A program made the translations under genes and the position numbers. A DNA stretch of 64,000 nucleotides. It comes from Octopus vulgaris (taxonomy: Eukaryota). The stretch lies in NCBI GenBank assembly GCA_951406725.2, contig OX597824.1, positions 50,406,001 through 50,470,000 of the forward strand. Reading direction: 5' to 3'. Each line of letters starts with the position of its first letter. Position 1 is the stretch's first letter. The notes below the pieces were generated by a model. It saw nothing but the letters and a program-made list of their open reading frames with translations, was not told the origin of the DNA and searched no databases. Shown here piece by piece: positions 9,336-58,243 of this stretch.

Positions 9336-9893
9336 AATAAATATAAAAATATATATTCTGTATTTGTAAACACAATAAATGAAGTATAAGGAGAGAAATA
9401 TTGTAGGTGTTGGCGAACTTTAATTCACAATCCAGGTTGGTACTGAACCAATATACATTCTACAAACTTTTTCGGAGTCTAATTAATTCCAAAGACAAAA
9501 ACGAAAAATTCTTCATGAAATATAAATTAGATACTTCGTCAGGAATTACATTCTAGTATGAATAATTACGACCAACAAAAATATACAAAGACCTTTCATA
9601 GCCCAGACGGGAACGAACGAATAATAATAGAATGAAAAATAGCTAGAACGCCAAATATTCAAAACCAGAATATATATATATATATATATATATATATATA
9701 TATATATATATACGGTTTAGGCAATTGAGATTTTTCCTATATATATATATATATATATATATATATATATATCACAATCAAGGAACGGCCATAATAGGCC
9801 ATTCACCCACTAGAAATAACAGCCAAAAGCTTTAACCGCAAAATAACATTAATACCGTAAACCAGGAGAAAATTGAAAAACTTTTACCCTGTA

Positions 9894-10000
9894 ATTTCTT
9901 AGACGATGCACCGTTTCATCTACCGTTTAATGGTAAACTAACCTGATTAAATTAAATCAAGCCAATCCACCATAGGCCCTTAGACTCATCAGTAAGAAAT
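9894..10000 (-). ncRNA. Type I hammerhead ribozyme (485-bp unit, copy 1)
   Basis: Minus strand: ATTTCTTA-CTGATGA-GTCTA...TAGAT-GAAA-CGGTGCATCG-TC-TAAGAAAT. 8-bp stem I; 19-bp extension inside stem II with six G-U pairs. Confidence 0.92.
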
Positions 10001-10378
10001 AGCCAAATCGGAACAGATATTTTTCACGAGGCATTCCTCTTGCTACCTCGGCAATATCTGACCTAAAATTTTCAAATCGTCGCACTCGCGCCAAATTTAT
10101 CGGCAGCAAATAAACCACCGATTCCGTTACGGAACTAACCAGAAAATTCATAATTAATCAATATAGGGTGGCAAAAAAAATTTTGTAGAATTCTTTTACC
10201 ACCAGCGGCCTAGTAGGAAAAAATTAAATAGTCATAAACCATTTTTACGTTCAACATCACAATCAAGGAACGGCCATAATAGGCCATTCACCCACTAGAA
10301 ATAACAGCCAAAAGCTTTAACCGCAAAATAACATTAATATCGTAAACCAGGAGAAAATTGAAAAACTTTTACCCTGTA

Positions 10379-10485
10379 ATTTCTTAGACGATGCACCGTT
10401 TCATCTACCGTTTAATGGTAAACTAACCTGATTAAATTAAATCAAGCCAATCCACCATAGGCCCTTAGACTCATCAGTAAGAAAT
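10379..10485 (-). ncRNA. Type I hammerhead ribozyme (485-bp unit, copy 2)
   Basis: Same sequence as 9894-10000, offset by 485 bp. Confidence 0.92.
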
Positions 10486-55255: not shown

Positions 55256-55409
55256 CACCACACAACCACACCCACACCTATGTGTATGTATGTATGTATG
55301 TATGTATGTGTGTGTGTATGTCTGTATGTATCTTAATGTGTTTATGTATGTTTTATTGTTGCTTCATTGGTTGTCAGTGTAATTGGGTTTCTTTCCTGTA
55401 TTGCTTTTT

Positions 55410-57300
55410 GTGAATTAACGAGTGGGACGGAACTGCTCTTCATTGAGTCACCAGTTGCGATATGGGTTCATCTGATATCTCAGGTAAAAATTTATCCAGA
55501 AGTTCTTTGAAAACTTCCACCTCTACATTTCACAAATCTCTGAGGCTGTTTCGCAGAATGTTGAATAATTGTAGGCCTTTGGAACTCAAGATAGTACAGT
55601 ACTGAGTCGTTATTCTAGATGGAGAAGCCGGTAGCTTTGGTTGTATGCAGTGCCGTCCAGTTCGATGGTTGATATGGCTTTCATTTCCAAAGTTGAGAGG
55701 TAGTCATTTCAGAAGATCCTATTTATATATAACTGCATATCTTCCATGTTTTCTCTCTAGGAATAGAGCTTCATTTCCTTTAGCTTCTCACAGTAGTTCT
55801 TCTGTTGCACCAGCTCAATCGTCTTAGTGGGGTGGTGTTGGACTGCTTCGAATTTTGCCACCAGATTGAAAGCGGTGACCACTTGTAGGAGCAGTAATCC
55901 TAACGATTGAGGACTAAAGTCCTCCGTTGAAATAACTTGGTGTCCTTTTTCTGGTTGTAAATGATCTCAGAATTCATTCAGTTACTCGCCTTCATAGTGT
56001 TCCCATCTTGGAAATATGCACATGAAATGTCACATCATTATTCCTTCCCACATCACGCATCGATTTTGACTCTGGAATTGCACAACCCTTTGGTCTTGTG
56101 TATTCCGATTGTAATCTATTTGTGGGTCCACAGTGGAGTATTTGAAACATTTCAGCATTGAACGGCATGTTATTTTCATCAGCCCACTTGTATATTGCAT
56201 TCCTGCAGTTTTAGAATGTCATCGGGGTCCTTGACTCATTGTGATACTTTTGTACGGTGATAGTGAGTGACTGTACGACTGAAGGCATGTCTGAGAACCA
56301 CCATAAACATTGGTGGTCATAGTACACTTCCATGAGGGACTCCGCTGAGAATTGATATCTCCCCATAGAAAGCATCATTGGTTGCAACTGTCTGATGTCT
56401 GCCTTTTAAAAATCACGAAGTTACTCTCCTAATTTTACAGTGGTGCAAAGGTCACGCGTATTGTGAGATATCATCCCATGATCAACTTTGTGAAAGTCCT
56501 GTAATTTTTAGCAGCTGCTTTGCTTCTTCCTTTATGGACAGGGAATATCATACCTTCTTTTAACATTTTAGAAAGTTTACCCCTTATAAAACAAACTCTG
56601 AAACAGTATCTGCAGTGGTTTTGCGAAAGCTTTCTTGCTTGTTTTTAAGAGAACAGCCGGAAATCCATCTGGGCCAGTTGCTGATATCGATATTACATGA
56701 TTCTTCTTTATGTCGATGTAACCAATGTAACCAATGGTTGATGTAACCAATGGTTGCCTCCTTCCTATGTAGATCTGCGGTGTTGAAGAACCCATCGGGA
56801 TTGTTTATTTGAATATTTTCTTGTGGAGAGGTGAAGGCGCTTAGGAATTGTTTATTTAGCACAACGCATATCCTTCTGGGGTCTGCCGCTTTCTTCAAAC
56901 TGGCCCTATCTTGTAGTGCACCGAGGCATATTCTTTTGCGAACTTGTATCAGGCTTTTGAATTTATTGTTATAATTTCCATTGCTCTGGTTTGTCTTCCT
57001 CCATTTCTTTTTCTTGGGAAAGTCTGTGTTCATTTTCAGTCTCTAAGCTGTCATTAAGTTATTTATCTAAGTGATTAGAAATCTTTATATCCCGACTCAT
57101 AAGGACTTTTCTGTCTCGGTGAATGATGTTTTTTGTATGTATTGGCTCTCTTCCCTGGGACAAATTTAACGCATATAGCTCGCATTGTTTACACGAATTT
57201 TTAAAGTTTCATCTCAATGTCTTGCATAAAGGGAATTTTAAGTCAATTTTGCAGAAATGTTTTCCAATCGACTTCCAATGCATACATAATTTTCCTGTAT
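55410..57300 (-). mobile_element. Decayed CR1-group LINE ORF2
   Basis: SATGPDGFPAVLLK..AKPLQILF, FHKVDHG, SGVPHGSVL, KLYSLER and KGLQLFNIL..FKRTLDKFL across broken frames. Confidence 0.8.
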
Positions 57301-58073
57301 CTTTTACAAGTTTATAATCTATTTTTATCACCATCAAACATCATCGTCATCGAAATCATCACCACCACCACCACAATCACCACCATCATCTTCATCATCA
57401 TCATCATCATCATTACCATCATAGTCGTTGTCATCAGCATCATCATCACCGCCACCGGAAAGACAATGACAAGCACCGAATCCACCATCACCGACACTAC
57501 TACCACGACGACAACGAGGACACGGAAAATCACTACCACGATCACTATCACCATCACCATCGTCATCATCACCATCATATATGAATGGTTCTAGCCATTG
57601 AGACAAGATTCGTTCTATTTTCTTCTAAATGCAGAGACAAGGGCAACGTTCATAGCTGGAGGGCAGATAACTCTTAAAGCCATACTTGGCTGTTTGCATA
57701 CAGCGGCAGTTATACGCGGCTGGTCTTCTGATTCATTAATAAATATATTTACACACTCACACACTCACACACGCATACACACTCATTCACGTGCACATGT
57801 ATGTATTTTGTTCTATGTGCGTGCGTACGTATACATATAATTTGTATACATATACGTTTGGATATATACGAATGCACACACACACACACACACACACACA
57901 CACAGACACACAGACACACTCACACATCCGCACGCGCACACACATGTATGTAAATACACACATATATATATATATATATATATATATATAACGGGAAGCT
58001 TTATGAAAATAGACAAAAGACGAAGGCAGGTGGAAAACAAACGGAATATATATATATATATATATATCTATAC

Positions 58074-58243
58074 AATATGTTACATTACTCGGTAGTCAAG
58101 ATAAAACTCTGAGTTTCAGATGCCGAAGTGGAAATCCACAACACCATCTCTTCGGTTATCTGGCTATTTGTTCAGATAAATTTCCTCTATTTACATAATA
58201 TTGAGGTCTCTTTCTTTCTTTTGTTATCTTACCGTTTTATCAA
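58074..58243 (-). mobile_element. Solo Naiad pseudo-LTR with hammerhead (58100-58160) and inverted tail
   Basis: 58074-58170 matches 12711-12807; 58174-58243 matches the tail at 23662-23731. Confidence 0.85.

Follow-up and report, generated by a model that had tools for sequence, protein, structure and literature searches.

Mirror-image insertions in the window

The stretch analyzed here, called the window, is 64,000 nt of the Octopus vulgaris genome (contig OX597824.1; G000:C11:50406001-50470000); the host genome is 2.8 Gb, AT-rich, and microsatellite-rich. The window contains a series of mirror-image insertions in (TA)n repeats, which we assign to Penelope-like elements (PLEs) and to non-coding tandem families with hammerhead ribozyme motifs. 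Each insertion pairs one short outer 3' end (S) with one long outer 3' end (L). Hammerhead motifs were identified by eye and give the RNA direction per family, and with this orientation the RNA 3' end faces outward at both ends in each family. Positions in the RNA are given on a ruler with S at 0, on which the tail is negative and positions towards the RNA 5' end are positive.

An earlier note on this DNA, made from its letters alone, had described seven such insertions of four families. All seven were found where it had placed them, within the ambiguity of the flanking TA letters, and are listed in Table 1 with the other features of the window. The S-to-L spacing was 106 nt in the 485-bp family, about 72 nt in the PLE family called Hydra below, 62-64 nt in the 426-bp family, and 44-46 nt in the 355-bp family, for which values of about 106, 70, 60, and 45 nt had been given. 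Both short tandem duplications reported at central junctions were also present. The families had been called unrelated and, in agreement, the rulers of five families showed no significant mutual similarity, the best cross match being a low-complexity one of 26.5 bits. The second 485-family copy, at 38274, is 88-89% identical to the one at 9771. An eighth insertion, of a Neptune-like PLE, had been missed.

Table 1. Features of the window, with positions counted from its first letter
Feature	Position	Strand	Description
Decayed mobile-element frame	8052-9191	+	
485-bp tandem hammerhead retrozyme insertion	9771..10802		(TA)n at either side; from self-comparison and sequence reading
S arm of 9771 copy	9771-10616	RNA on -	846 bp, 1.7 units
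485-family type I hammerhead motif	9901..9992	-	Predicted, by eye; canonical core 9992-9986 with a long stem II; cut predicted 5' of 9901, at 128 nt upstream of S
Tandem duplication	10605..10626	+	11 bp, at head-to-head junction of 9771 copy
L arm of 9771 copy	10622-10802	RNA on +	181 bp
Hydra-clade PLE insertion	12705..14321		S arm 12705-14294 (1.6 kb)
Variant hammerhead-like motif, Hydra pseudo-LTR	12741..12792	-	By eye; core has C at position 4 and an additional U ahead of GAAA; cut predicted 34 nt upstream of S
Hydra open reading frame, 5'-truncated	13041..14228	-	Reverse transcriptase from YKDD on, CxCX5C linker, C-terminal GIY-YIG-type endonuclease
L arm of 12705 copy	14295-14321		27 nt, nothing but tail; zero overlap with S arm
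Hydra mini-insertion	23457..23731		S arm about 145 bp; 15-bp duplication 23582-23611; L arm 23616-23731
426-bp tandem retrozyme insertion	25181..25880		L arm 25181-25732, S arm 25819-25880
426-family canonical hammerhead core	25498	-	By eye; inside L arm of 25181 copy
(ATGT)n filler between arms of 25181 copy	25733-25818		86 nt
Decayed mobile-element frame	27863-28288	+	
485-family insertion, diverged subfamily	38274..38881		L arm 38274-38634, S arm 38631-38881; symmetric centre
Decayed mobile-element frame	40179-40736	-	
355-bp tandem retrozyme insertion (the earlier note's 41-kb family)	41383..41824		S arm 41383-41650, L arm 41650-41824
355-family U3-A8 hammerhead core	41590-41584	-	By eye; inside S arm of 41383 copy
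Decayed mobile-element frame	48022-48300	+	
Older palindromic insertion, sixth family	53040..53487		One-sided extension of about 34-40 nt, TA flanks
Hydra mini-insertion	58074..58243		S arm 58074-58170; L arm 58174-58243, tail alone
Neptune-like PLE insertion	60424..64000		S/L; S arm 60424-63611
Open frame of Neptune-like PLE	61205..63559	-	784 aa; reverse transcriptase PF00078 above cut-off, C-terminal GIY-YIG PF01541 just under cut-off; DKG; CX4CxxC linker
Inverted L arm of Neptune-like PLE	63612 to about 1.8 kb past the window end (L130:5322)		Tail 31-39 nt

The coding family at 12705 had been labelled Naiad, which proved wrong. Naiad is defined by an N-terminal GIY-YIG endonuclease and by DKA in place of DKG. 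Here, the endonuclease motifs lie C-terminal to the reverse transcriptase (RT) in the frame at 13041-14228, no such motifs were seen in the N-terminus of full-length copies, and all eight long copies translated read DKT. RWK was found in five of these eight, and a CSCRNKELC linker (CxCX5C) precedes the IIYEA...YVG motifs. The definition of Hydra includes a C-terminal GIY-YIG with a CxCX5C linker (PMC8557442; this and all other papers are cited for the parts of them that were accessible), and insertion into (TA)n was also found. The pseudo-LTR (long terminal repeat) carries only a variant hammerhead core, with C4 and an extra U, and not a canonical one. Pfam gave no hit for the 13041-14228 fragment. 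Judged by its motifs, the family is a Hydra-clade PLE. Five long copies (L236, L237, L238, L240, and L244) share a frame break at an A/T-rich spot after about 110 codons, which could be a lesion of a spreading subfamily or a programmed frameshift.

The frame at 61205-63559 has the Neptune motifs, namely an RT with DKG, a CX2-5CxxC linker, and a GIY-YIG at the C-terminus; the label Neptune-like is used because this linker is common to Nematis too. The 485, 426, and 355 families consist of tandem units, up to about seven per arm, each with a type I hammerhead motif. The core is canonical in the 485 and 426 families and U3-A8, a described variant (PMC4209133), in the 355 family. No frame of at least 120 aa lies over the 9771 copy, and where stop-to-stop frames reach into the 426, 355, and 38274 copies, they are 120-133 aa long and pass through TA repeats. 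By these features, the three families are non-coding tandem hammerhead retrozymes. Rfam showed no hammerhead in the best 150 of 293 rows, which were dominated by microsatellite-driven microRNA models.

Pairing of short and long ends across the genome

About 350 loci out of several thousand in the genome were sampled. One collection of copies was made by similarity, with 40 candidates scored out of 713-1462, and a second used exact end patterns taken in genome order. Automatic classification yielded 317 distinct clusters of four families (485, Hydra, 426, and 355), of which 208 were S/L, one was L/L (locus L081), and none was S/S. Of the rest, 78 were single-armed (L alone in 43, S alone in 35), 13 had an unclassified end, and 17 were cut by the locus edge. 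S/L clusters made up 68/113 in the 485 family, 64/90 in Hydra, 15/28 in the 426 family, and 61/86 in the 355 family, and (TA)4 or longer was present at both ends in 193 of the 208.

The pairing was also examined with position lists, which are independent of the similarity score. Within a radius of 6 kb, the 485 family gave 25 S/L pairs, while none of 100 L ends had a second L as its partner and none of the 97 S ends that entered, out of 100, had a second S. The corresponding values for the 355 family were 51 S/L pairs and none of the like pairs among 100 L ends and 98 of 100 S ends. An L/L candidate spaced 8.2 kb was rejected, as it consists of two separate S/L insertions. Genome-wide pattern counts were 1267 L and 441 S for the 485 family and 755 L and 592 S for the 355 family; since the S and L patterns are not equally tolerant, their counts should not be compared. 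Where both ends of a Neptune-like copy were seen, the pair was S/L in 14/14 (three were paired by coordinates only), and many further copies were single-armed or extended past the fetched stretch.

S/L pairing is thus far beyond chance. The earlier note had named S/S and L/L pairs as frequent as S/L as the outcome that would refute its rule, and the 209 two-ended clusters contained no S/S and one L/L. The rule held almost strictly for two-armed copies (208/209), but it was not universal; it describes two-armed copies and not all copies.

Hidden micro-arms were considered as a cause of single arms and rejected, since an automatic test returned one convincing case (L140) in 44 rows of the four families. 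A few extra cases were seen by eye (L326, L390). Because micro-arms were so rarely found, most single arms are real. Among the single-armed 485-family copies (L191, L192, L202, L206, L207, L209, L220, and L224), the score-ranked set has nine L-only arrays, of which eight terminate at positions from -119 to -32, within the tail region or next to it.

The older palindromic insertion of the sixth family is consistent with the S/L rule; no hammerhead was identified in it. This family is heavily decayed, with 85-92% identity between copies, 1767 candidates, and two favoured ends about 35-40 nt apart.

Junctions, templates, and a proposed mechanism

An informative direct repeat of 12-16 nt flanked 7/170 S/L insertions, compared to 0.72 (maximum 4) in shuffled pairs; these lengths are upper bounds, as some letters may be the element's own. 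Two further target duplications were found by eye (L439, L466). Duplications are informative only at interrupted TA runs because pure TA hides them. A target duplication of about 10-15 bp implies staggered nicks with two 3' overhangs. Such nicks, with both overhangs usable as primers, are established geometry for target-primed reverse transcription (TPRT; PMC2837659). Short repeats of the (AAT)n, (AC)n, or (TC)n kind lie between the element end and the TA run in L061, L074, L083, L038, L151, L142, and L222, and look as if letters had been recopied at priming or had slipped later.

In the tandem families, the two arms were truncated independently: their inner ends were offset by a median of 76-167 nt and lay at most 25 nt apart in 10/51 copies, where about 6 were expected by chance. 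Eight of 58 Hydra L arms stop at or before S, while the S arm reaches up to 1.6 kb. Since these eight share nothing with the S arm, neither of the two arms was produced from the other by fold-back. Filler was present in 75 of 199 simple junctions, and 80 of the other 124 overlapped by at least 2 nt, compared to about 17% by chance, although this count is inflated because overlaps were taken from BLAST ends.

Full-length Hydra copies run on for 107 nt from L to the ATG, and four Hydra junction fillers copy the RNA at +138 to +141 downstream of L, just within the open reading frame, plus a few extra purines. L is therefore an internal site of a longer RNA. At the opposite side, 59/109 Hydra arms stop 85-112 nt upstream of S, a position just ahead of the ribozyme fold rather than at the cut, and we infer that the RNA 5' end lies there. 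A ribozyme-cut RNA as the main template was unsupported as a rule, with 1/109 Hydra arms within 5 nt of the cut and 3/66 of the 485 family at +128. A fixed distance from cut to S was also rejected, the distances being 34, 128, 174, and 191 nt.

Divergence between the arms of one insertion was lower than divergence between insertions in all four families (0.23 vs 1.25%, 2.27 vs 3.86%, 0.69 vs 1.69%, and 0.90 vs 2.61%). Minor subfamily alleles were in both arms in 19/19 cases in the 485 family and 18/18 in the 355 family (0.12 and 0.22 when shuffled), and in one of only two cases in the 426 family. Private changes were confined to one arm in 76/87, which disfavours later homogenisation. In 16 multi-unit insertions, 68/71 variants were private, none was arm-wide, and none occurred in the matching unit of both arms. 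Units so alike in both arms would fit a single monomer template, for example a circle, and they would also leave room for two RNAs from one homogeneous source. If one monomer template was shared, the RT would have to be able to displace strands.

One clean two-family chimera was found, at L206 (G000:C1:70528552-70530135), where a 355-family S arm stands head-to-head with a 485-family L arm, with no TA between them. This S arm begins 1-2 nt past the predicted ribozyme cut and is up to 99.4% identical to other copies. The chimera suggests that two RNAs may occasionally be used. A Hydra L arm begins 27 nt beyond it, within that TA run. A doubtful second two-family chimera, L457, was the sole find among 60 unpaired ends. 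A relative of the 355 family, with tandem units of 354 bp and a U3-A8 hammerhead, was seen at L457:2264-3234, L129:519-1015, and L288:193-864; it is S/L in L129 and L288 and is joined to a 485-family L arm in L457. At L284:5050-7423, a Neptune-like L arm continues straight into 485-family sequence in the same direction, by a template switch or by insertion with target deletion. This locus was rejected as proof of a partnership between the two families, since it can be explained just as well by an insertion that deleted a little of the target.

The earlier note had proposed that the two target strands are primed at two distinct fixed RNA positions and the products joined head-to-head. This is still the best reading, with the qualification that we infer all of its enzymatic steps from finished DNA. 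In our form of it, which we consider probable, twin TPRT would be carried out by a protein dimer on one RNA with two fixed internal sites, S being used on one strand and L on the other. It is favoured by the target duplications, the independent truncation of the arms, the subfamily variants common to both arms, and the fillers from downstream of L, with in vitro work on the element PAc (PMC11167929) as a precedent. A Penelope-type protein dimer would cut a TA repeat on both strands, with about 10-15 bases between the cuts, and both cut ends would prime reverse transcription on the single RNA, one active site starting at S and the other at L. The two complementary DNAs would end at unrelated points and be joined by microhomology or short template jumps, and repair would fill in the second strands. 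Hydra mini-copies would result from priming near the RNA 5' end, since the ends of Hydra arms lie about 85-112 nt upstream of S. For the tandem hammerhead families, this machinery would work in trans, probably on circular monomers. Single-armed copies could be cases in which one priming failed or one arm was lost later.

A more general version can be offered only tentatively, at somewhat less than even confidence. In this version, the default insertion of an endonuclease-bearing Penelope element would have no true 5' junction, since both outer junctions would be priming sites. An asymmetric dimer would be obliged to use S on one strand and L on the other, and the inverted pseudo-LTR with a one-sided tail would be its footprint. 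Hammerhead retrozymes would be inserted likewise, with two RTs around one RNA circle, and the rare use of two RNAs would fuse families.

Several findings weigh against twin priming on one RNA. Single-armed clusters made up 78 of the 300 not cut by the locus edge, a share raised by the last 60 loci, which were picked because they were unpaired; in addition, there are the 13 clusters with an unclassified end and the L/L cluster at L081. Hydra minor alleles were in both arms in only 20/43 cases, although 22 of the 23 discordant alleles are G/A or C/T transitions and may reflect later mutation. Overlapping arms on one RNA need strand displacement, yet L arms do not pile up at S; a roadblock at S on a shared RNA was rejected for lack of a clear pile-up of L-arm ends. 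The L206 chimera requires two RNAs or a later deletion. A shared tail structure was also rejected, as folding z-scores ranged from -2.2 to +0.3 in five families with no common fold, and the retrozymes have no assigned autonomous partner. Finally, for an element studied in vitro, PMC11167929 saw no difference in start sites between top and bottom strands, and no coupled products are reported in its accessible parts.

Another possible explanation is that the two cut ends prime on two separate RNAs, usually from one source locus, with an asymmetric or sequential complex imposing S against L. The clean chimera L206 and the weaker case L457 would follow from this, and displacement would be unnecessary, in line with the absent pile-up of L-arm ends at S. 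However, these two chimeras stand against 208 own-family pairs, and the 60 unpaired ends gave only L457. Retrozyme arms agree in subfamily allele in 37/37 cases while insertions differ mutually by 1.3-2.6%, and a deletion between adjacent insertions could yield L206. We regard two separate RNAs as an unlikely general explanation. Slightly less likely again is single priming followed by self-priming on the antisense template, with the hairpin resolved by an endonuclease that cuts element DNA at S and L, as in the proposals of PMC3846280 and PMC8557442. Both outer ends do lie in AT-rich, target-like sequence with 1-8 nt of identity to (TA)n, and some junctions are symmetric palindromes (the 38274 copy, L208, L188, and L117), with 34/58 Hydra junctions near-symmetric. 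Hairpin resolution predicts symmetric inner ends, which the offsets of the tandem families contradict, and the Hydra symmetry is explained by both arms stopping at a common hot spot. Nor can it yield an L arm that is only tail next to an S arm of kilobase length, filler copied from downstream of L, or a chimera of two families, and RT starts at the tail boundaries have been measured directly (PMC11167929).

Single-armed insertions might also have been turned into palindromes later by replication fold-back, with the tail trimmed on one side. Single-armed copies are common, TA runs are unstable, and slippage repeats occur at several S ends. The second end, however, lies at one fixed, family-specific site, and the youngest copies (99-100% alike) are already two-armed. 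Arms without overlap cannot have been copied from one another, and the target duplications surround the unit as a whole, so that later fold-back is very improbable. Fold-back chimeras are a known artefact of long reads, and among the short-read contigs listed none spans the window's own junctions. An assembly or long-read artefact would nevertheless not produce arms that are asymmetric in a fixed manner and carry private substitutions. Contigs of a public short-read run show at least 15 other head-to-head Hydra joints and two of the 355 family, each weak alone with 20-30 letters on the shorter side. We consider an artefact almost certainly not the cause.

Known systems and other elements nearby

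The observation is real and strongly non-random, and it is a sharpened form of a known architecture. An inverted copy with a tail at one end has been described for endonuclease-bearing PLEs (PMC3846280, PMC8557442). These papers treat the layout qualitatively, via self-priming or endonuclease resolution, whereas here it was counted (208:1:0). Unlike in their accounts, the tails here are 31-106 nt long, the tailed arm is often an inverted stub or even tail only, and non-coding tandem families obey the same rule. In vitro, two internal RT start sites bound the tail of the Poseidon element PAc, both strands were cut and extended, a dimer was predicted, the target was AT-rich, and uncleaved RNA was the main template (PMC11167929). 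An AT-rich target is common to PAc and the insertions here, as would be two internal start sites at the tail boundaries. The Hydra tail lies in the 5' untranslated region, in contrast to the PAc tail, which lies in the open reading frame. The accessible parts of PMC11167929 neither assign one site to each strand within an event nor account for the inverted copy. The origin of Penelope inverted ends was named as open in PMC8557442 and was not settled in the accessible parts of PMC11167929.

Twin or dual priming of L1 (PMC2837659) is similar in that both target strands prime, the 3' ends face outward, and the arms are head-to-head within a target duplication. In L1, one start is at the poly(A) end and the other at an internal site that varies, the arms do not overlap, and such insertions are a minority outcome. 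Here, in contrast, the two sites lie inside the RNA at fixed positions, overlap of the arms is usual, and the paired form is the majority outcome. The present insertions therefore show the two inverted fragments within a target duplication that mark the L1 type, and not its poly(A) start, variable site, or lack of overlap.

Metazoan non-LTR retrozymes are non-coding tandem units with a type I hammerhead and multimeric copies, for which mobilisation by PLEs from circular RNA has been proposed (PMC7761336, bioRxiv 10.64898/2026.07.22.740005). The link was argued there from ribozyme type, co-occurrence, and phylogeny. The present units measure 355-485 nt, compared to about 150-300 nt in those papers. 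Inverted S/L insertion ends were not found described for retrozymes in the accessible parts of either, or elsewhere in the literature searched. Pairs of hammerhead ribozymes on opposite strands 100-700 bp apart were noted in PMC4209133, and the accessible parts of PMC9977147 contain nothing on end pairing. Part of what the earlier note described is already in print: PMC11167929 has the two fixed internal start sites, shows that both strands are cut and extended, and predicts a dimer, and the inverted copy with a one-sided tail is standard (PMC3846280, PMC8557442). In the literature searched, no statement of strict pairing, or of its reach to retrozymes, was found; figures, bioRxiv supplements, and older subscription papers might contain one.

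With its 208:1:0 ratio, the pairing makes a sharp prediction that can be tested in vitro with the published system: within a single event, one strand has to start at a site different from that used by the other. Three non-coding tandem hammerhead families carry the S/L footprint, which is direct evidence, from insertion sites, that Penelope machinery moves retrozymes, and S/L insertion explains many palindromes within the TA repeats of a large animal genome. For gene writing with Penelope enzymes, inverted double products would be the outcome to expect.

The decayed mobile-element frames in Table 1 presumably represent fragments of a PLE-like thumb and endonuclease, a frame of AP-endonuclease type, and a piece of a Helitron-like helicase; those at 27863-28288 and 48022-48300 were without a Pfam hit. 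A repeat that terminates in a TA run was seen at 57954-58043 and 49206-49301, and similar ends occur in the flanks of many fetched loci. These recurring ends suggest further TA-targeting families that cluster in shared TA runs. At L227 and L228 (G000:C1:117.78-117.80 Mb), a local duplication carries a Hydra L arm, and an uninterrupted frame about 2 kb away resembles a beta-1,3-galactosyltransferase. Near-identical (97%) local direct duplications lie around (ATT)n in the window, at 35055-35262 / 36385-36598 and 36277-36390 / 36591-36704.

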